Positions 14,350-61,290 of a DNA stretch of 64,000 nucleotides are shown one piece after another. Position numbers and translations under genes: made by a program. Every line of letters begins with the position of its first letter. The first letter of the stretch is position 1. A model generated the notes under the pieces. It ran no database searches, had not been told where the DNA came from, and saw nothing but the letters and a program-made list of their open reading frames with translations. The stretch is from Escherichia coli (GTDB taxonomy: Bacteria; Pseudomonadota; Gammaproteobacteria; Enterobacterales; Enterobacteriaceae): NCBI RefSeq assembly GCF_030013595.1, contig NZ_CP122768.1; one strand, written 5' to 3'.

Positions 14350-14425
<76 letters not shown>

Positions 14426-14479
14426 GTTTAAAAGGCATCGGCGTCAAGCGGATGTCTGGCTGAAAGGCCTGAAGAATTT

Positions 14480-14553
14480 GGCGCGTTAACAAAGCGGTTA
14501 TGTAGCGGATTGCAAATCCGTCTAGTCCGGTTCGACTCCGGAACGCGCCTCCA
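14480..14553 (+). tRNA. cysT: tRNA-Cys (GCA)
   Basis: GGCGCGTTAACAAAGCGGTTATGTAGCGGATTGCAAATCCGTCTAGTCCGGTTCGACTCCGGAACGCGCCTCCA read directly. Confidence 0.92.
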
Positions 14554-14565
14554 CTTTCTTCCCGA

Positions 14566-14652
14566 GCCCGGATGGTGGAATCGGTAGACACAAGGGATTT
14601 AAAATCCCTCGGCGTTCGCGCTGTGCGGGTTCAAGTCCCGCTCCGGGTACCA
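14566..14652 (+). tRNA. leuZ: tRNA-Leu (TAA), long-variable-arm type; 3' part lies inside prophage attL
   Basis: GCCCGGATGGTGGAATCGGTAGACACAAGGGATTTAAAATCCC...GGTTCAAGTCCCGCTCCGGGTACCA read directly. Confidence 0.92.
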
Positions 14653-14722
14653 TGGGAAAGATGAGAATAAAATCAAAGCAATAAGCAGTGTCGTGAAACC
14701 ACCTTCGGGTGGTTTTTTTGTG
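14597..14722. repeat. Prophage attL: 126-bp direct repeat (3' 56 nt of tRNA-Leu plus downstream terminator)
   Basis: Same 126 bp at 60374..60499 with one mismatch (gatgaga vs gataaga); flanks differ on both sides. Confidence 0.85.
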
Positions 14723-14782
14723 TCTTCTTTCTCATTTCCGAAGATGCGTCCGAAGATGATTTTTCTCTGGACGCATCATCAT

Positions 14783-26350: not shown

Positions 26351-26649
26351 TTACATATGCACTTGATGACTAAGCTGGCACCAGGTTAACACCATGCGCC
26401 AGCTTGAAGGAGACTTCAGTTATTGGTTTCTGAGGAAAGCGATTCTTGAAAGGGTCATTTGCGTCTGGCAGTCGACCATTTTCTTGACTTCAGCATCTGT
26501 TCCTTTCTTGACTTCAGCATCTGTTCCCTGCATTGAAACTTTACCGCACATAGCATCCTTAGTTTTGATCCACTGGCGCTGAGAAGGCAGCAACTTGAAC
26601 CGCCCCGGAAATCCTGGAGACTAAACTCCCTGAGAAAGAGGTAAACAGG

Positions 26650-26976
26650 ATGACTAAAAATACTCGTTTTTCCCCCGAAGTCCGTCAGCGGGCGATTCGT
26701 ATGGTTCTGGAAAGTCAGGATGAATATGACTCACAGTGGGCGGCAATTTGTTCCATTGCCCCAAAGATTGGCTGTACGCCGGAGACTCTGCGTGTCTGGG
26801 TTCGCCAGCATGAGCGGGATACCGGGGGCGGTGATGGTGGGCTCACCAGCGCTGAACGTCAGCGTCTGAAAGAGCTGGAACGTGAAAATCGTGAACTGCG
26901 CCGCAGTAACGATATCCTTCGCCAGGCTTCCGCTTATTTTGCGAAGGCGGAGTTCGACCGCCTCTGGAAAAAATGA
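26650..26976 (+). CDS. IS3-family transposase OrfA (HTH)
   Basis: [41 protein letters not shown]...; ends in AAAAAATGA frameshift window (A-run 26968-26973). Confidence 0.85.
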
Positions 26977-27863
26977 TGCCACTGCTGGATAAGCTGCGTG
27001 AGCAGTACGGGGTCGGACCGGTATGTAGCGAACTGCATATTGCCCCGTCAACGTATTACCATTGTCAGCAACAGCGACATCATCCGGATAAACGCAGTGC
27101 CCGTGCGCAGCACGATGACTGGCTGAAGAAAGAGATACAGCGCGTATACGATGAAAATCACCAGGTATACGGTGTGCGTAAAGTCTGGCGTCAGTTGTTA
27201 CGGGAAGGTATCAGAGTGGCCAGATGCACTGTGGCACGTCTCATGGCAGTTATGGGACTTGCCGGTGTTCTCCGGGGTAAAAAGGTCCGCACTACCGTCA
27301 GCCGGAAAGCCGTTGCCGCAGGCGACCGCGTAAACCGTCAGTTCGTGGCAGAACGACCTGACCAGCTGTGGGTGGCTGATTTTACTTACGTCAGCACATG
27401 GCAGGGCTTCGTCTATGTGGCGTTTATCATTGATGTGTTTGCCGGATACATCGTGGGGTGGCGGGTCTCATCGTCTATGGAAACGACATTCGTGCTGGAT
27501 GCGCTGGAGCAGGCGTTGTGGGCCCGTCGTCCGTCTGGCACCATCCATCACAGCGATAAAGGCTCTCAGTATGTGTCACTGGCCTATACGGAGCGACTAA
27601 AAGAAGCCGGATTACTGGCATCAACAGGGAGTACAGGCGACTCGTATGACAACGCGATGGCTGAGAGCATCAATGGTCTTTACAAAGCGGAGGTAATACA
27701 CCGTAAGAGCTGGAAAAAACGTGCAGAAGTGGAACTGGCCACACTAACGTGGGTGGACTGGTATAACAATCGACGATTGCTGGGAAGGCTGGGCCATACT
27801 CCTCCGGCAGAAGCAGAAAAAGCTTATTATGCTTCCATCGGAAACGATGATCTGGCAGCCTGA
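26973..27863 (+). CDS. IS3-family transposase OrfB (DDE catalytic domain), -1 frame relative to OrfA
   Basis: 296 aa with DDE integrase-core-like region (...[31 protein letters not shown]...[10 protein letters not shown]...[15 protein letters not shown]). Confidence 0.85.
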
Positions 27864-29436
27864 GTTCACAGATAAAACACTCTCCAGGAAACCCGGGGCG
27901 GTTCAACTCTTTTTTCTTCGCCGGGGTTAACTTGCTCCAGACGGTATTCAAATCAGAGTCAGCATTTGCAAATGCCATTCGGGACTGATCAAGGCTTTCA
28001 GATTTTTGCGGCTGAAGTTGTGCCTGCCTCTCTTTTTGCTTCTCCGCCTCATACCTGGCCTGTTCCTGTGCCCTGAGTTGCACCTGTTGTTCCGCTTCAA
28101 TTTGACTCTGTTGGGCATCCTTAGCCTGCTGGATTTTCTGCTGCTCAACGATCGGGTTGATAATGGAAAGCGATGTCAGTAAAGCGGCGCCCACTGATAT
28201 CGGATTATCAGAAGAGGTTTTTACAAAAACGTTTTTCTGATCGTCGGTCGCCTGCACGGTGTAGGTGATACGCCTTGAAAAGGCGTTTGCGTTGTTCTCC
28301 AAAAACAGATTTTCCATTTGCTTATCGAGATTACGATTAAAATTCTTTCTGTAAGCATCTGAAAGCTGGACGTACTCGTTCGCAGGTAGAGTCATCGTCA
28401 CGGTCCCTTCACAAGTTTTCATTGTGCTGCCCGTGTCACTTGATGTTGTGGAGATTTCAGAGACGGCTAGTTTGATCTTGTCCAGTGTGCTTCGTTTGGT
28501 CTGATTAGTGACATCAGGGTATTTATCGACCTGTTCAGAGAGTCCTTCATAAGCAGATTTTTTTAATAAATCCATGAGAGCTGATTGGGTCATTTCCGAA
28601 GAACAACCGATCTCATCTTTTTTGTTATCACAGCCTGTAAGGGCAATGGCGAGTAAGAGTACTGAGTATTTTAATCTCATGAATTCCCTTTAGAGTAAGG
28701 ATTGGTTTTTAAGACGCGGTCTGTAATCAGTTCCGAGAGCTACAGTAAACAACGCTGAGCACTGAACGCATCACAGGCAAGGTAAAAGGTGATATCGGCA
28801 AAGGCTGTGAAACCTTTAATTCAACAGATGGGAACGGTATGCACAGGATCCTGTAACGACGCTCCCAAAACTGGAAACCTGTAAGGCATGTTTTCGCTGC
28901 TGAACTTAATATACGAACCTGCACTATCATGAACATATTTTATATCGTTATACCCCGAGTGATTGTGCCCGGCAATGGATAGTGTCCTGGAGGAATTATT
29001 TCTAATGTAAAAGGAAGATATTTAATTTCGATGTGGGATTATTACCTGTCTATAAGAACAATGACTTTATCTGGCAGTAAGCAGACATCTATTAGCTTAC
29101 TGAAGGGGGGCTGTGATTTGACCATTAACGGCATGAGATATATTGTCTATTGGTGATTGTTCTGAGGCCGATATCACGTTAACGACCAAGTAAAATAACA
29201 TGAAAAATTATTTATTAATGATTGCCAGCATTAAATGTAGTGATACCTCATTAGCAGGGTGCTCCGCAATGACTGCGATGAACTAAAAAATCAGTCATAA
29301 CCATGAAAAAAACAAGTGTATCAGCGAAATTAAATCTGGTGAAAGCATTTAATTACTTGTTAATGACGCAATAAAAACATACTATGGAAATGTAACAGCT
29401 AATCTACAGTTCTTGTCAATAGGGGCGCACAAGAAA

Positions 29437-50797: not shown

Positions 50798-51424
50798 ATG
50801 GCAAGTCAAAGTGTGCTGCCTCCGAACGCAATAACTCCCGAGAGGGCGCTTGAGGTTGTTTTATCTCACGTCGGCGATCTGCCTGGCGATATTCGAATTA
50901 TTAAAAATCCCGATTTGTGCCCTGCAAATCTGTTGCCGTGGCTGGCGTGGGAGTACGCGGTCACCTACTGGAACCCCGACTGGAGTGAGCAGCAAAAACG
51001 CGAAATTATTAAGGCCGCAGCCTGGCAAAATAAATATCGCGGCACGCGTGGTGCCGTCGAACGAGCATTATTAACGGTGGGATTTGAGAGCAAAATGAGA
51101 GAGTGGTTTGAAGCCACGCCCAGGGACGACCCGTATACATTCGCAATTAAAATATATCTGCTAAAAAGTATAGGGTTAGATTTAGAACTATTGAATACCT
51201 TTATTGCACAAATATTTGATGCAAAAAATTGCCGTTCCTTATTAAAAGAAATAAATTTTGAAACGGGTGTCGATGGTGAGTTTTTTATAGCTGGTGCACC
51301 TTACGCGAAAATAGGCGTAAATATTCCAGCAGACGGCGACGGCGGTGTAAAAATTAACGGCGGGCTATATATATCAGGCTCACCAATTGTTAGTTTAAAT
51401 GTGGAGATAGGGCCAAATGGCTGA
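50798..51424 (+). CDS. Tail protein I-like
   Basis: 208-aa ORF in I position. Confidence 0.55.
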   Translation: MASQSVLPPNAITPERALEVVLSHVGDLPGDIRIIKNPDLCPANLLPWLAWEYAVTYWNPDWSEQQKREIIKAAAWQNKYRGTRGAVERALLTVGFESKMREWFEATPRDDPYTFAIKIYLLKSIGLDLELLNTFIAQIFDAKNCRSLLKEINFETGVDGEFFIAGAPYAKIGVNIPADGDGGVKINGGLYISGSPIVSLNVEIGPNG

Positions 51425-52595
51425 AAATAAAATTTACGCAGTACTGACAGACCGGGGGGCACAACTTGAGGCCGCGGCATTAGCATCAGGTGTGCCGGTA
51501 GTACTGAATAAATTCGTTATTGGTGACGCGAACGGAAACGACGACGTAACACCGGACCCGTCACGAACAGTATTAATTCACGAAACGTATCGCGGAGATA
51601 TTAAATCGTCAGAAAATAGCGGCAATCAGGTTATTTTTACACTGTACGTACCACCGGAAACCGGCGGTTATACTATTCGAGAGGTTGGAATATTAACAGA
51701 TAAAGGCGAGCTGTACTCTGTAGCACGCTCGCCGGATATTTTAAAACCCACGGACAGCAACGGCGCGCTGATTTCAATCACATATAAATACACTCTCGCG
51801 GTGTCCAGCGCGTCTACTGTTAACGTTGTCATTGATAACAGTAGTGGAATGAGCCAAGCAGATGCAGATAAGCGTTATTTGCAGATAAGCAAAAATTTAT
51901 CTGAAATTAAAGATAAGGGCGCGGCGGCGCAACAAGCTGGGCGAGAAAATCTCGGCGTTAACTTAAATAACTATTATAAAAAAGAAGAGATAGATAATAA
52001 ATTTTCAGAAGTGGATAATGAGTTAAATAATATAAACCCAGTCATGACGGTTAACCATTTACAGCCTGATTCTGACGGCAATGTTAATGTGGATTCGGGA
52101 TACGCAAAACTGGGCGGCGACGGGGCATTTAATTTAGTTGCTCTGTTTCCGCAGCAATCTGAACCTGACGCGACAAATAAAACCATGCCTGGTTACCGGC
52201 TTTCTTCTGTGATATTTAAAGCGAATCCCAGCCTTGAAATTTTGGCTCATGGATATTTATTTGGATTGTGGGAATTAATTGCCATTCCGTTAGTGACAGT
52301 ATCTAGCGGATACGAACTGAATGGCGGTGTTTCTGGTGCTGTAATGGCTCGGCGAATTCCTGTTGGCAATATAAACAAATTCAGCAATATAAAAAAACCT
52401 CATTATCCTCAGGGCCGTGGCGTGGTGGGAACGTATGAAACTGCCTACATAAACATTGAATGCGATATTGAGGGAGTTGGAACCGGACTAATATTCACGA
52501 CAAATAATAATGATGTTGAGGAATACGGTCGTCAATTATATCAAAACGCAATAAACGGTATGTACGGCACAGTAACAAACGGTTATCAAAGTTGA
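51417..52595 (+). CDS. Tail fiber protein (P2 gpH-like N-terminal domain)
   Basis: 392 aa; N-terminus (...VIGDANGNDD...TVLIHETYRGDI...VPPETGGYTIREVGILTDKGELYSVA) follows the P2 H N-terminal pattern. Confidence 0.6.
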   Translation: MAENKIYAVLTDRGAQLEAAALASGVPVVLNKFVIGDANGNDDVTPDPSRTVLIHETYRGDIKSSENSGNQVIFTLYVPPETGGYTIREVGILTDKGELYSVARSPDILKPTDSNGALISITYKYTLAVSSASTVNVVIDNSSGMSQADADKRYLQISKNLSEIKDKGAAAQQAGRENLGVNLNNYYKKEEIDNKFSEVDNELNNINPVMTVNHLQPDSDGNVNVDSGYAKLGGDGAFNLVALFPQQSEPDATNKTMPGYRLSSVIFKANPSLEILAHGYLFGLWELIAIPLVTVSSGYELNGGVSGAVMARRIPVGNINKFSNIKKPHYPQGRGVVGTYETAYINIECDIEGVGTGLIFTTNNNDVEEYGRQLYQNAINGMYGTVTNGYQS

Positions 52596-57105: not shown

Positions 57106-57262
57106 TACAAAATCAAGCGCTACCAGAGCACTTAACAAGTATAAAAATAAAAAAAACTACGAACATAAATGTAAAACAACCTGATGGTATTTTTTTGACG
57201 CCGAAATACTAATACCTCTCCGACTACTAAAATTAATTCTCATTATGAAATCCTTTTAATTA

Positions 57263-57490: not shown

Positions 57491-58534
57491 ATGAGTGATT
57501 ACGTAAATACTGGCGTGGAAGCATGGAAGCCCAATTTTTATATATCTGCTGATAATGAAAACATCACGGATAAAATAAGAAAAGGTTTGATCAATATCAC
57601 GCTCACAGATTATGGTGGTTCGAGTAAACAGACAGACGAATTACGCGTAGCAATCGTTTCTGAAACTCTGAAAATTCCGGCCCGCGGAGTAAAAATCAGT
57701 ATTGGGCTCGGTTTCGGTAATCAGATAATTGATAAGGGTGTATACATCGTTGATGGTGCGAGCAGTGGCGGTGAACCCCGGGTAGTTGATTTCACAGCAA
57801 AAGCAGCGCCGATGAACGCATCAAAAGGCTCTCCGACAGTTCAGAGCAAAAAAACTCGCTCCTGGAGCGACGTCACTGTCAGCAATATCGTTGCAACAAT
57901 AGCGAGCGATAACGGGCTAAAACCACGCGTATCAAAGCGGTTTGCAGACAATATTATCACGCAACTCGATCAAGTCGGCGAGTCAGATATGCACCTGATG
58001 TCGAGACTAGCAACACGATTCGATGCGGTGAGTAAACCCGCGGGAGGGTACTGGATATTCCTGCCGCGCGGCGCGGGCGAATCTGTTAGCGGAGCGCCGC
58101 TTCAGCACTACACGCTCACGCGTCGTGATAACTCCAGCTGGGGTTATTCACGAAACGGACAAAGTGGCGATAGTGGTAGCGGTGGCGAAAATCCGGAACC
58201 GACGTATCTGATTAAATATCACGACACAGCAACTGGGCAGATCAAAGAATTGCGGACAGGTAGTGGCGGCGATCCTGTCATTGAATGGCCGACAGTTGAG
58301 CCGTCGCTCGACGCAGCGAAAGAAGCTGCACCAGGGCTCAAGGGCGGTGCAGCTAAAAAAGAGTTCTCTATGACGTACACGACGCCAGCGACGCTCGATT
58401 TAGTGTCGCTGACAGCAGAATGCAAAGTCACAACTCAAGGATTCGGGACCGAGGAGGACCGGGACTGGACTATCAACACGCTGAGCCTGACGCTTGCTGA
58501 AAACGGCTTTTCGGTTCGACTGTCACTGGAGTAA
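57491..58534 (+). CDS. Tail protein D-like (late control D)
   Basis: 347-aa ORF, end of the contractile-tail gene set. Confidence 0.65.
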   Translation: MSDYVNTGVEAWKPNFYISADNENITDKIRKGLINITLTDYGGSSKQTDELRVAIVSETLKIPARGVKISIGLGFGNQIIDKGVYIVDGASSGGEPRVVDFTAKAAPMNASKGSPTVQSKKTRSWSDVTVSNIVATIASDNGLKPRVSKRFADNIITQLDQVGESDMHLMSRLATRFDAVSKPAGGYWIFLPRGAGESVSGAPLQHYTLTRRDNSSWGYSRNGQSGDSGSGGENPEPTYLIKYHDTATGQIKELRTGSGGDPVIEWPTVEPSLDAAKEAAPGLKGGAAKKEFSMTYTTPATLDLVSLTAECKVTTQGFGTEEDRDWTINTLSLTLAENGFSVRLSLE

Positions 58535-58539
58535 ATGAA

Positions 58540-59487
58540 ATGGCAGTAATATCGGGTGTATACGCAAACGGGATCGGTGGGCCAGTTGTCGGCGTTCAGT
58601 TAGTATTAACAGCGCGGGTCACGAGTTCAGGCGTAGTAATGACCACCGTTGTAGAGCAAAAAACAGGCGCGGCGGGTGAGTACAAATTTGATATGAAGCC
58701 CGGCGTTTATGTCGTCACTGGTTGTGGCGCGTATCTGGGCGTGATTAATGTTAATCCGGACAGCCCAGACGGTACGCTAAACAACTATTTAACTAATTTT
58801 AGCGCAGACGAAATGACGCCGGCGGCGCTGACCGAGATCCAGGAACTGGTTAACGAGGCGAAGGCCGCGGCGGCTACTGCTCAGGATGCTGCTGCGCAGG
58901 CGATAACCGCAGTAGAAAAAATCGGCACGCCTGCGCCGTACATCCCGCCAGCGTGGGACGCCCCGGGGAGCACAATTTTTGGATATCTTTATATTGATAA
59001 AGGCACGTCATATCTACGGCCGGGGGAGATTGTTTCCGCGTCGTCAATTTACGTTGGCAACGTGACAATGATCGATAAGGGGAGCGGCCCGATGATCGGC
59101 ATGAGTCACACGCAGCAGCCCAGCGGTGGGAGTTGGCGTTTGCAAGGCAGCACAACACCAAATACAGACGCGAGTGTTAAATCAATGCGCAGCGCATTGA
59201 TTTTTCTCAGAATTGATAGCGACAGCCTGTTAACGCCCTCTCTGTTAAAAAGCGGTCGCGGCTCTGCGCGGGTGCGTAATTGCCGTTACGTAAACGCAGA
59301 GGGGACCTCGATTGATTGCGAGATTTTCACAGCAAACAGATGGATTCCGTTTACAGCGGCCGCTGATGACGTAACTGATTGGGGACGAAAAATTTTCAGC
59401 GACGCCCTAGCCGGTTTGTACGGTGTGATTGGCGTATTCGGCGCCCCCCTTTTTCCAGCTAATTGCAGTGAATCACCAGTAGTCTAG
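58540..59487 (+). CDS. Tail-fiber-related protein with Stf-like N-terminal domain
   Basis: N-terminus MAVISGVYANGIGGPVVGVQLVLTARVTSSGVV... resembles lambdoid side-tail-fiber N-termini; C-terminal part unrecognised. Confidence 0.4.
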   Translation: MAVISGVYANGIGGPVVGVQLVLTARVTSSGVVMTTVVEQKTGAAGEYKFDMKPGVYVVTGCGAYLGVINVNPDSPDGTLNNYLTNFSADEMTPAALTEIQELVNEAKAAAATAQDAAAQAITAVEKIGTPAPYIPPAWDAPGSTIFGYLYIDKGTSYLRPGEIVSASSIYVGNVTMIDKGSGPMIGMSHTQQPSGGSWRLQGSTTPNTDASVKSMRSALIFLRIDSDSLLTPSLLKSGRGSARVRNCRYVNAEGTSIDCEIFTANRWIPFTAAADDVTDWGRKIFSDALAGLYGVIGVFGAPLFPANCSESPVV

Positions 59488-59732
59488 CCCCCTGACCATC
59501 ATGGTGTAACAGGAGTTCGCTTGGCTGAAACGGATTCTCGGCGCGGTTATCTCTTGAGTAAATGAAACGGACTTGGGGAGGCTATAGAGAGCGCCAATTT
59601 AGTATTAACGACAGTCGACTGCAAACGGCACCTGCGTTATTTTTATGTGTAAGCCGAAGGACGAAGAGCCTCTGGTGCTGGACGTTGTTATCGTTAGATG
59701 CTGACAATTTTTAATATTGGGAGTTTTCAAAC

Positions 59733-60152
59733 ATGGTCGTTAAAAATGCTCTTGCCTGTGGGATTATGCTTGCTCTTGTCGGTTGTGCTACAAAACCTGT
59801 CTCAAATGAACAAGCCACACCTGTTCCTGAAAAACAAATAATCAGTACCGCGTTACTCGAAAAACGAGACGGTACGGGAGAGGTGATCATCAAGCGTGAC
59901 TCGGGGTTCTTTGGAAGCGCGTGCTTTTCCCGTGTTTATGTTGATGGTAAAGAGGTGGCAGATTTAGGTACAGCTCAGAAAGTCGTTGTATACCCAACGA
60001 TTGGAGATCATGTCTTCAGCGCGTGGCCTAAAGGGGTATGTGGCGGTGGCATGAGCGAACAGGCGGGCAAGGTGACAACAGAACGTACTTTGATGTATCG
60101 CATAGGGTATGGATCAAACGGTGAATATGGCATTCACCCAACTGCGTTTTAA
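59733..60152 (+). CDS. Prophage-end lipoprotein (moron)
   Basis: MVVKNALACGIMLALVGC lipobox; 139 aa; last gene before attR; hairpin at ~60172-60200. Confidence 0.5.
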   Translation: MVVKNALACGIMLALVGCATKPVSNEQATPVPEKQIISTALLEKRDGTGEVIIKRDSGFFGSACFSRVYVDGKEVADLGTAQKVVVYPTIGDHVFSAWPKGVCGGGMSEQAGKVTTERTLMYRIGYGSNGEYGIHPTAF

Positions 60153-60373
60153 TTTGTGTTGGGGTATGTGAGTTTTTCTCATACCCCTTTACCTCACTTT
60201 GCTCTTGACTGTTTGGTCACATCAAGGCGCAAAACATCACCATTTTTTGCCAAAAACCTTCAGAAGATGATGAGTAAGACGTGTCATAACTATATGATTA
60301 TTTGATATTCACACACACCATTATGTCCGGATAATTTACCATAATCATTTGAAATTATTGCACAAAACGAACA

Positions 60374-60499
60374 ATTTAAAATCCCTCGGCGTTCGCGCTG
60401 TGCGGGTTCAAGTCCCGCTCCGGGTACCATGGGAAAGATAAGAATAAAATCAAAGCAATAAGCAGTGTCGTGAAACCACCTTCGGGTGGTTTTTTTGTG
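60374..60499. repeat. Prophage attR: second copy of 126-bp repeat (includes 3' 56 nt of tRNA-Leu, 60374..60429)
   Basis: Identical to 14597..14722 except one base. Confidence 0.85.
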
Positions 60500-60624
60500 C
60501 CTGCAACTTGTCGTTACACCCTCCTTAATTTTTAATCACCGGCAAAGCCACTCAAAAAGTATCTCTGTTACGGACCGACATGTAAGATAGGTGCTGGCGA
60601 GTTGAGATCCACAAGGAAAAGCGT

Positions 60625-61290
60625 ATGAAAACGGGACCGTTAAACGAAAGTGAGTTGGAATGGCTGGACGATATTCTGACCAAATACAACACTGACCACG
60701 CCATTCTTGATGTGGCGGAGCTGGACGGTTTATTGACGGCGGTGTTGAGTTCTCCGCAAGAGATTGAACCGGCACAGTGGCTGGTTGCCGTGTGGGGTGG
60801 GGCTGACTATGTGCCACGCTGGGCGTCAGAGAAAGAGATGACGCGCTTTATGAACCTGGCTTTTCAGCATATGGCCGATACCGCAGAGCGTCTGAACGAA
60901 TTCCCGGAGCAGTTTGAGCCGTTATTCGGCTTGCGAGAAGTCGATGGCAGCGAGCTGACGATTGTTGAGGAGTGGTGCTTTGGCTATATGCGGGGCGTGG
61001 CACTTTCTGACTGGTCAACGTTACCCGATTCGTTAAAACCAGCGCTGGAGGCGATTGCGCTGCACGGTACTGAGGAAAACTTCGAGCGGGTAGAGAAGAT
61101 GTCGCCAGAAGCGTTTGAAGAGAGCGTAGATGCCATTCGACTGGCGGCGCTTGATCTACATGCGTACTGGATGGCGCATCCGCAGGAAAAAGCTGTTCAG
61201 CAACCGATCAAAGCAGAAGAGAAACCGGGGCGTAATGATCCTTGCCCGTGCGGTAGTGGTAAGAAATTTAAGCAGTGCTGCCTGCATTAA
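60625..61290 (+). CDS. yecA: UPF0149/SEC-C motif protein YecA
   Basis: 221 aa ending in [18 protein letters not shown] (SEC-C metal-binding motif); position next to leuZ. Confidence 0.85.

Follow-up and report, generated by a model that had tools for sequence, protein, structure and literature searches.

A probable Stf-type accessory tail fibre and a candidate exclusion lipoprotein at the right end of an Escherichia coli leuZ prophage

The two genes that lie between the tail module and the right attachment site of an Escherichia coli prophage raise the question of whether both are cargo, as had originally been predicted, or whether one of them contributes to the virion. The stretch of DNA analysed (64,000 nucleotides, hereafter the window) carries a 45.8-kb prophage in the tRNA-Leu gene leuZ, with a lambda-like head, an intact terminase and a P2/pyocin-like contractile tail. 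The right end of the prophage had been placed at attR, and local alignment confirmed this: the repeats at the two ends (Table 1), which include the 3′ 56 nucleotides (nts) of leuZ, are identical at 127 of 129 positions with 2 mismatches, and the host gene yecA begins beyond attR, at 60625. The lipoprotein gene is, as proposed, the final credible gene ahead of attR. Both open reading frames start with ATG and are annotated by PGAP in a near-identical genome, the dN/dS values indicate purifying selection on both, and neither gene stands out in base composition. No match was obtained for the 315-aa or the 139-aa protein among the PADLOC-DB defence-system models, nor for the fibre-lipoprotein region in an Rfam scan. 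The gene preceding the pair is gpD-like: it has a weak Pfam Phage_GPD match, gpU and gpX lie upstream of it, and PGAP names its product 'late control protein'. We read the two genes, one structural and one accessory, as closing the late (tail) transcription unit of a temperate myovirus that integrated in leuZ. Taking the two genes jointly, we favour with moderate confidence a 315-aa Stf-type accessory fibre that is part of the virion, followed by an exclusion-type moron lipoprotein of the family PHROG 890.

Table 1. Coordinates of the features discussed, numbered from the first base of the window
Feature	Position	Strand	Remarks
tRNA-Leu(taa) gene leuZ, intact	14566-14652		ARAGORN and Rfam tRNAs
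attL	14597-14725	+	129-bp direct repeat; spans the leuZ 3′ part and the leuZ terminator
gpD-like tail protein gene	57491-58534	+	final conserved gene of the P2/pyocin-like tail module
Accessory (side or collar) tail-fibre gene, probable	58540-59487	+	315 aa; GGAG ribosome-binding site
Stf-N collar/anchor domain	58546-58911	+	residues 3-124; beta-sandwich 1-71, helix after
Alanine-rich helix	58819-58920	+	residues 94-127; AF2 secondary structure; presumed trimeric coiled-coil shaft
Beta-rich C-terminal tip module	58927-59439	+	residues ~130-300; presumed receptor-binding
Terminal ~60-aa domain	59269-59439	+	residues 244-300; PHROG 1141/1795 matches
C6 homopolymer	59444-59449	+	C7 allele in nearest complete genomes
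Degenerate repeat of gpD 3′ end and fibre start	59518-59570	+	~75% identity, with indels
Relic, 3′ end of older GF43-type (608-aa) fibre gene	59614-59732	+	aligns to GF43 locus L007 7733-7860
Lipoprotein gene	59733-60152	+	139 aa; signal peptide 1-17, lipobox LVGC residues 15-18
Terminator-like hairpin	60161-60187	+	after lipoprotein stop; weak U-tail
attR	60374-60502	+	duplicated leuZ 3′ fragment (to 60430) and leuZ terminator

The 315-aa protein had been described as starting like the lambdoid side-tail-fibre proteins, and its first domain bears this out, matching Pfam PF08400 ('prophage tail fibre N-terminal') over residues 3-124 with 79.3 bits (E 3e-22; gathering threshold 26.6 bits). Tail-fibre matches were also returned by the PHROG search, a profile of the family matches the structures 9e7m and 7kjk, homologues that are 43-91% identical over the full length occur in E. 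coli and Salmonella, and the N-terminal domain matches the gpStfN collar fold, which consists of a six-strand sheet and a helix. The AF2 model of the protein is confident over all domains and predicts the helix and a beta-rich module, the latter shared with longer fibres; the trimer and the receptor contact are presumed. The equivalent of this helix in lambda Stf is the linker with the proximal coiled coil (PMC12617516). A collar role has been described for Stf-N-type domains (PMC12617516, PMC10457771): in Ur-lambda the domain forms a 12-mer ring round the tail, and in the contractile-tailed Vibrio phage XM1 a domain of this type fixes six trimers to the neck.

Comparison with these systems shows how far the likeness extends. 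The Stf of lambda (Ur-lambda gpStf, PF08400) has 774 aa, whereas the present fibre is without the long shaft, the hinge, the gp37-like distal domain and the downstream tfa. Its carrier has a contractile P2/pyocin-like tail and lambda a siphovirus tail, and therefore the gpV/gpM docking site of lambda cannot be assumed here. For a fibre on a sheathed tail, attachment to the neck as in XM1 would be an analogy; a test for XM1-like neck proteins did not support it, the tail being pyocin-like and the neck open reading frames giving no useful matches. The neck and tail proteins are likewise pyocin-like rather than XM1-like, and the distal parts of the XM1 collar spike gp40 (839 aa) and of the cyanophage A-1(L) neck fibre gp82 are unrelated to that of the present fibre.

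The C-terminal region, originally called unrecognised, proved to be a recurring fibre-tip module and not a unique sequence, though one without a solved structure (no match in the PDB). The C-termini of about 50 representative clusters (171-820 aa) match it; when five long proteins with this module were scanned, PF08400 was found in all five, collagen repeats in two and CBM5/12 in three. The terminal ~60-aa domain also ends the main gpH-like fibre of the same prophage (51417-52595; BLASTP E 3e-8), and it opens many small proteins, two of five scanned carrying DUF4376, a fibre-chaperone domain (PMC10579305). A tfa gene is absent after either fibre of this phage, the 315-aa gene being followed immediately by only a 245-bp relic region and then by the lipoprotein gene. 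This absence may be due to a chaperone-like nature of the terminal domain, which could serve the fibre as its own assembly cap in cis, in place of a separate Tfa. The related idea of a fusion or fission between fibre and chaperone was rejected by inspection of the sister prophage in GF43, which has a different tip and, unlike the prophage here, a tfa gene: its separate Tfa is a classical P2-G-like one and lacks the 60-aa domain at its start.

The position of the gene was also compared between prophages. The ATG of the fibre gene lies 5 nts past the gpD stop, and the Stf-N fibres of E24377A (WP_000974855.1, 336 aa) and GF43 (WP_096984663.1, 608 aa) likewise follow gpD by 5 nts, although these prophages sit near zinT/yodB and not in leuZ. 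The Stf-N domain of these two is 87-89% identical in DNA to that of the 315-aa fibre, whereas their C-termini are entirely different. The same lipoprotein gene follows the fibre gene in GF43, as it does here, and in E24377A only a 30-aa relic of the lipoprotein is left. Thus the label of cargo does not suit the 315-aa protein: it has a complete fibre architecture of collar domain, predicted coiled coil and shared tip module, it starts directly behind gpD with no terminator ahead of the lipoprotein gene (RNA folding gave no stable structure in the interval between the two genes), and sister prophages hold Stf-N fibres with swapped C-termini in this very slot.

The locus is nevertheless scarred, and the scars bear on whether the 315-aa frame is functional at all. 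Repeat alignment identified 58491-58543, the gpD end and fibre start, as the source of a degenerate repeat that marks the right edge of the fibre insertion, ~1.03 kb that the common leuZ prophage does not have. Just downstream, what is left of an older fibre gene now serves the lipoprotein gene as its upstream region. Because of this repeat and the chaperone-like terminal domain, which resembles the start of small proteins, some of them with DUF4376, we considered whether the frame is a non-functional chimeric leftover of recombination at the prophage end, in which an Stf N-terminus was joined to parts of fibre or chaperone genes. The rarity of the gene, found in 2 of 5426 complete E. coli genomes, fits such an origin, and so does a frameshift allele on record, in which C7 instead of C6 leaves a protein of 307 aa whose last 7 residues differ. 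The frameshift, however, touches only residues beyond the last conserved domain. Homologues built in the same way over their full length (297-331 aa, 41-91% identity) are found in E. coli and Salmonella, and their natural C-terminus lies a few residues beyond a conserved YG-x-V motif, as in the 315-aa protein; this conservation led us to reject the leftover, which we regard as very unlikely. Against it stand also the sharing of the tip module with the ends of the ~50 other fibre clusters, the dN/dS of 0.15-0.18 in the Stf-N domain, and the confident structure model across domains.

We therefore retain the accessory fibre as the preferred reading of the gene. The slot after gpD would be a hotspot of fibre exchange, where recombination in this lineage brought in a whole new fibre gene next to what remains of the older one. 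In the Salmonella relatives an opposite-strand gene stands between gpD and the fibre gene. Most leuZ prophages have lost the fibre gene, and the common form of the leuZ prophage, which ST131 is among those to carry, has none of it, indicating that either the gene is dispensable or those prophages are defective. In the proposed fibre the ~90 N-terminal residues would form a lambda-Stf-type collar domain, by which the protein would be held on the virion; the short alanine-rich coiled coil would trimerise the chain, and the ~170-aa beta-rich tip would bind a receptor on the host surface.

The second gene had been predicted to encode a 139-aa lipoprotein with the lipobox LVGC, and its signal peptide agrees with this. 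A lipoprotein signal was taken as a positively charged n-region, a hydrophobic h-region and a lipobox [LVI][ASTVI][GAS]C; in the N-terminus, MVVKNALACGIMLALVG followed by C, residue 4 is Lys and a hydrophobic core leads to the lipobox, whose Cys18 (59784-59786) is present in 33 of 34 aligned homologues. Since position +2 is Ala and not Asp, the protein would be sorted to the outer membrane by the E. coli +2 rule. The mature domain has two conserved cysteines (C64 and C103), which are invariant along with R55, D56 and R123, and is predicted to fold as a transthyretin-like beta-sandwich (pLDDT 88.7), with fold matches that are generic, and the dN/dS of the gene is 0.05-0.08. The protein matches PHROG 890 with E 2.9e-52 (residues 4-139 against profile positions 2-136 of 136), a family annotated 'lipoprotein' and without assigned function.

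Other searches placed it in no further family. No match was found in Pfam, using precursor and mature forms at E <= 10, or in NCBIfam, and DUF2846 (PF11008) was not among the results; one distant homologue (P0079) carries a PF11008 match. A PDB sequence search with the family profile returned nothing, and the Lambda_Bor Pfam profile did not match. In hhalign, alignment to T5 Llp, HK022 Cor and lambda Bor was restricted to the signal peptide (with Bor, ~20 further residues of low confidence), and membership of the Llp/Cor/Bor group was therefore rejected. A spanin identity was rejected as well, the PHROG spanin matches reaching just E ~0.09 over the signal peptide. Homology to a structural or lysis protein, against which the original prediction was to be judged, was found nowhere beyond the signal peptide. 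The literature on PHROG 890, DUF2846 and the accessions gave no linked phenotype, DUF2846 leading only to an unrelated Bdellovibrio protein.

Of 5426 complete E. coli genomes, 434 (~8%) carry the lipoprotein gene, the ST131 strain EC958 among them, and the product of the gene is 63-76% identical to homologues from Klebsiella, Citrobacter, Enterobacter and Salmonella. The gene occupies at least six genome slots in temperate phages, five of them in addition to the end of the leuZ prophage: the gap between K and I in phages of Klebsiella and P. aeruginosa and in mEp390, that between T and TMP in Salmonella, that between TMP and M in HK639, the plasmid-maintenance or early region of SSU5, and, in Vibrio H20-like phages, a site 15 nts after cI with neither promoter nor terminator between and a canonical terminator directly after it. 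All the phage records inspected that have the gene are of temperate phages, prophages or prophage-derived elements, or phage-plasmids. The many slots, the temperate carriers and the operon shared with cI support a moron, and the lysogenic-conversion type of position that had been proposed for the gene is thereby supported. Its variable presence, its differing genome positions and a terminator-like hairpin of its own, all read from sequence, likewise support a moron.

The transcription signals around the gene were less clear than originally stated. The hairpin after the stop codon (-16.4 kcal/mol, z -3.8) has a homologous counterpart in GF43 (z -4.9) with compensatory changes, so that an own terminator holds as a structure, but its T-tail is weak and a consensus terminator scan does not call it. 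The promoter scan likewise passed over the promoter-like TTGACT (60205), which makes an unconvincing promoter; the sole site that it called is TTCACA-16-GATAAT at 60308-60335. No sigma-70 promoter was called upstream of the lipoprotein gene in the window. The relic contains a weak promoter-like TTGTTA-19-TTTAAT (59685-59715) under the scan threshold, and in the GF43 copy of the region the corresponding sequence is TTGGTA-18-TATAAT (promoter score 10/12).

This arrangement, in which the gene follows the late tail operon without a terminator between them or a called promoter, together with its embedding in the tail operon of most siphophage relatives, on the same strand and 41-76 nts from its neighbours, raises a different function. 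Such repeated siting inside tail operons could mean a role in the lytic cycle, that is, a 'lytic conversion' of the T5 Llp style, tail assembly, or envelope disruption. In Llp-style lytic conversion the receptor is masked and progeny are not wasted on debris. We regard a lytic role as unlikely, however: in the Vibrio phages the gene shares an operon with cI, SSU5 has it in the plasmid-maintenance or early region, none of the inspected carriers falls outside the temperate, prophage-derived and phage-plasmid groups, the likeness to spanins is that of the signal peptide alone, and tail modules that are otherwise isogenic differ in whether they have the gene.

For the moron, superinfection exclusion is the most likely function by analogy. 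T5 Llp and the Cor proteins of HK022 and phi80 have an experimentally established role in exclusion. Lipoproteins encoded within the structural clusters of temperate coliphages also exclude phages, and for mEp Lpp021 and Lpp010 the exclusion was shown by experiment (PMC11893012). Llp, Cor, Bor and Lpp021/Lpp010 resemble the present lipoprotein in being small, phage-encoded and provided with a class II signal peptide, and their genes lie either at the end of a prophage or beside genes for tail or receptor-binding proteins. In contrast, the mature domain of the present protein has no detectable homology to those of Llp, Cor and Bor and, with 121 residues, is roughly twice as large. Unlike Llp, Cor, Bor and Lpp, it is also highly conserved, both between genera and between phages whose receptor-binding proteins differ. 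Because identity is high among phages whose receptor-binding proteins are unrelated, a receptor-specific blocker is a poor fit for the protein.

The conservation across genera points to a host target that is itself conserved, and this has also been weighed in favour of a role in the fitness or virulence of the host, such as Bor-like serum resistance or tolerance of envelope stress, with no anti-phage effect. An outer-membrane lipoprotein at the moron position of a prophage end recalls lambda bor, the gene is common among the listed clinical isolates, several of them ST131, and it is found in phages of K. pneumoniae and of P. aeruginosa from cystic fibrosis. Yet the homology to Bor is limited to the signal peptide, the homologues extend to the fish pathogen V. 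anguillarum, Xenorhabdus and environmental samples, and the literature links no phenotype to the family, and a host factor of this kind seems to us quite improbable. We accordingly keep to exclusion, for which the following course is proposed. The PHROG 890 protein would be an outer-membrane-anchored beta-sandwich facing the periplasm, encoded by a mobile moron whose transcript would form part of the late operon, with probable expression in the lysogen as well. The protein would bind a conserved component of the envelope, alter the envelope and thereby exclude superinfecting phages. A more tentative extension, which we think possible but doubtful, is that PHROG 890 forms a new genus-spanning class that protects lysogens by binding a conserved component of the entry route, in the periplasm or the outer membrane, and not a variable receptor.

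Neither gene overturns current understanding. The fibre would be one more case of the modular exchange of receptor-binding proteins, with a lambda-Stf collar domain placed on a temperate coliphage that has a P2/pyocin-like contractile tail, and the compact tip module that it defines might serve in the retargeting of phages or tailocins. The lipoprotein, with dN/dS below 0.1, no literature and carriage across several genera, offers the more useful lead. Should it exclude phages, it would bear on the host range of phage therapy in the lineages that carry it, and if the genus-spanning reading were true, one exclusion factor would span the prophages of E. coli ST131, K. pneumoniae, P. aeruginosa and V. 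anguillarum.

The window is E. coli chromosome, where a 45.8-kb prophage, followed by yecA, tyrP, yecH and ftnA, is flanked by a 129-bp direct repeat (2 mismatches) that spans the 3′ 56 nt of the tRNA gene leuZ and the leuZ terminator. Going by the annotated, near-identical prophage of strain HCP5S3_I2, this is a mosaic temperate phage with a tyrosine integrase, lambdoid early, Q and lysis genes, lambda-like head genes (gpW, portal, S49 protease, decoration protein, major capsid protein, FI and FII) and P2-like contractile tail genes (V, W, J, I, fibre, sheath, tube, E, tape measure, U, X and D); the sheath matched the R-pyocin sheath PA0622 (E 6e-49). The IS content is unlike that of HCP5S3_I2. 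An IS3-family element containing an ALIL frameshift pseudoknot (RF01497) occupies the site where that prophage has its 'lysozyme inhibitor LprI family' gene, with a 5-bp overlap in the flanking alignment, and the window lacks the two other IS3 copies and the ISVsa5 in the terminase found in HCP5S3_I2, its terminase being uninterrupted.

Features of the prophage and its boundaries, in window positions
Feature	Position	Basis
glyW, cysT, leuZ tRNA genes	14350-14652	
attL copy of the 129-bp repeat	14597-14725	alignment
IS3-family element	26593-27905	
ALIL pseudoknot	26931-27047	RF01497
Main gpH-like fibre gene	51417-52595	
gpU-gpX gap	57106-57262	
315-aa fibre gene (+)	58540-59487	
Hairpin, 5-bp stem and T-run	59431-59455	
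C6/C7 homopolymer	59444-59449	
Degenerate copy of gpD 3′ end	59518-59570	alignment
Homologue of GF43-type fibre gene 3′ end	59614-59732	alignment
139-aa lipoprotein gene (+)	59733-60152	
Sigma-70-like site	60308-60335	
Equivalent of 'tRNA-OTHER'	roughly 60326-60430	PGAP
attR copy of the 129-bp repeat	60374-60502	alignment

The existence of the two ORFs at the right end was confirmed, and both are annotated by PGAP in a near-identical genome. Compared with homologous loci, the lipoprotein gene has a dN/dS of 0.05-0.08 and the 315-aa gene one of 0.15-0.18 over its first 105 codons; both are coding sequences under selection, not chance ORFs. The original prediction, which regarded the 315-aa protein as Stf-N-like cargo next to a lipoprotein in a typical lysogenic-conversion position, was half right: the lipoprotein part is credible. 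PF08400 matched residues 3-124 of the 315-aa protein (79.3 bits against the Pfam cut-off of 26.6), and many PHROG tail-fibre families matched as well. Its AlphaFold model, built from 42 homologues, has high confidence (mean pLDDT 88.8) and consists of a beta-sandwich (1-71), a long helix (94-127) and a beta-rich region (145-290), and Foldseek and the family HMM on PDB sequences concurred in matching it to 9e7m (E 9e-17) and XM1 gp40 (E 3e-5). In lambda, a collar of twelve Stf-N-domain copies encircles the gpV/gpM junction and bears four trimeric side fibres (PMC12617516), and in XM1 an Stf-N-type domain of ~100 residues anchors six trimers on the neck (PMC10457771). On the sheathed tail of its carrier, the 315-aa protein might dock at the neck, like the XM1 collar fibre, or elsewhere; no XM1 match was found for the neck and tail proteins of this phage, which are pyocin-like. 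The most fitting reading of the 315-aa protein is a structural accessory fibre rather than cargo, located in a fibre-swap hotspot.

The C-terminal region, previously called unrecognised, proved not to be idiosyncratic. Full-length relatives of 297-331 aa with a common end point occur in E. coli and Salmonella (41-91% identity), and a ~170-aa module is C-terminal in about 50 clusters (171-820 aa) among the 1.8 billion cluster representatives searched. PF08400 was found in all five long module-bearing clusters scanned, collagen repeats in two and CBM5/12 in three; no PDB structure matching the module was found with Foldseek or the family HMM on PDB sequences. The terminal ~60 residues (244-300) recur as the N-terminal part of numerous small proteins, and two of the five scanned carry DUF4376, the domain found in the fibre chaperones or 'caps' of Alteromonas phages (PMC10579305). 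The main gpH-like fibre (392 aa) shares this terminal domain (BLASTP E 3e-8; sequence ..IECDIEG..FTTNNNDVEEYGRQLYQNAINGMYGTV). No tail-fibre assembly gene (tfa) lies downstream of either fibre in this prophage, the sheath gene being directly 3′ of the main fibre; in contrast, the sister phage of strain GF43 has a different main-fibre tip and a classical Tfa. We infer that the ~60-aa domain may replace a chaperone or cap in cis.

The fibre gene starts 5 nt 3′ of the gpD stop, preceded by GGAG. Among 5426 complete E. coli genomes, it was found in only 2 and the lipoprotein gene in 434, while the first ~300 nt of the fibre gene are 87-89% identical in 21 further complete E. coli genomes. Three sister prophages among those 21 were inspected (E24377A, CFSAN061769 and GF43). 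All adjoin zinT/yodB, have the same tail module as the window and encode, 5 nt past gpD, an Stf-N protein whose C-terminus is unrelated (336 aa in E24377A and CFSAN061769, 608 aa in GF43). GF43 has the lipoprotein gene 28 nt past the 608-aa fibre gene, whereas E24377A retains only a 30-residue relic of it. These varied Stf-N fibres, the copy of the gpD end and the stump of an older fibre indicate that the slot after gpD is a fibre-exchange hotspot; in the window lineage, a complete short fibre gene was recombined in upstream of that stump. The large C-terminal domain of the GF43 fibre (L007 6006-7832), which had no Pfam match outside the N-domain, looks like an alpha/alpha-barrel glycoside-hydrolase-like (depolymerase) module, judging from its sequence. 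The C6/C7 homopolymer polymorphism at the 3′ end of the fibre gene yields alleles of 315 and 307 aa that differ only past the last conserved domain (tails ..GAPLFPANCSESPVV and ..GAPPFSS), and a hairpin overlaps it. In Salmonella relatives, the fibre homologue is likewise the final phage gene after gpD, with an opposite-strand gene between them. Opposite-strand Bro-N/KilA-N-type genes lie between gpD and the Stf-N gene in Salmonella (L026 2874-3683) and beyond the lipoprotein gene at the right end in GF131 (L003 3766-4521), and therefore the whole gpD-to-attR interval looks like a variable accessory region. Between gpU and gpX, sister prophages also encode a small 'superinfection immunity protein' on the opposite strand (E24377A, L005 4482-4682; L006 2083-2343); the window gap is shorter than theirs and lacks this ORF.

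The 139-aa protein begins with a canonical lipoprotein signal (MVVKNALACGIMLALVG followed by CATKP), and Ala at +2 predicts an outer-membrane location by the E. coli sorting rule. It matched PHROG 890 'lipoprotein' over its full length (E 2.9e-52), and no match was found in Pfam, NCBIfam, PADLOC or PDB sequences. The 84 homologues come from Escherichia, Salmonella, Citrobacter, Klebsiella, Enterobacter, Yersinia, Xenorhabdus and others; those in genome records are mostly 136-139 aa long, and the aligned homologues from named Enterobacterales are 56-76% identical. R55, D56, G58, C64, A76, G105 and R123 are invariant in the alignment and C103 nearly so, and the model is an eight-stranded transthyretin-like sandwich (pLDDT 88.7). 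Kinship with T5 Llp, HK022 Cor or lambda Bor was rejected, the profile alignments being limited to the signal peptide.

By tblastn, the family was found in 65 phage records, and all lipoprotein-bearing records inspected were temperate phages, prophage-derived phages or phage-plasmids. The gene lies in the gpK-like/gpI-like gap in mEp390, Klebsiella prophages and P. aeruginosa siphophages, in the gpT/tape measure gap in Salmonella, in the tape measure/gpM gap in HK639, in the early or maintenance region of SSU5, and 15 nt 3′ of the cI repressor gene in the H20-like phages of Vibrio anguillarum. Across these many slots, it behaves as a moron. In the H20-like phages, neither promoter nor terminator was found in the cI-lipoprotein gap and a canonical terminator directly follows the gene, an operon structure that implies lysogenic expression. 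In the window, the fibre and lipoprotein genes have no terminator-like structure between them (z +0.8) and the promoter scan called no sigma-70 site upstream of the latter, which is therefore certainly placed for late transcription. The homologous GF43 sequence upstream of the gene scores as TTGGTA-18-TATAAT, a conserved hairpin lies 3′ of the window gene, and lysogenic expression in the window prophage is plausible. A single sigma-70-like site was called in this region (TTCACA-16-GATAAT, 10/12), within the AT-rich stretch (36% GC) from the lipoprotein gene to attR and facing the leuZ remnant and yecA; in the near-identical genome, PGAP annotates a 105-nt 'tRNA-OTHER' at roughly 60326-60430 in window terms.

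Some temperate coliphages encode lipoproteins within their structural clusters, and these were shown to exclude phages sharing the same receptor (PMC11893012). By analogy, the likeliest function of the 139-aa protein, tentatively, is to exclude superinfecting phages or mask a receptor from the periplasmic side of the outer membrane; rival readings are a role in the lytic cycle and one in host fitness or serum resistance. Its conservation is unusually high although the carrier phages have unrelated receptor-binding proteins, which speaks for a conserved target in the envelope and against a variable receptor. The 139-aa protein is credibly a lysogenic-conversion or exclusion moron of an uncharacterised family.
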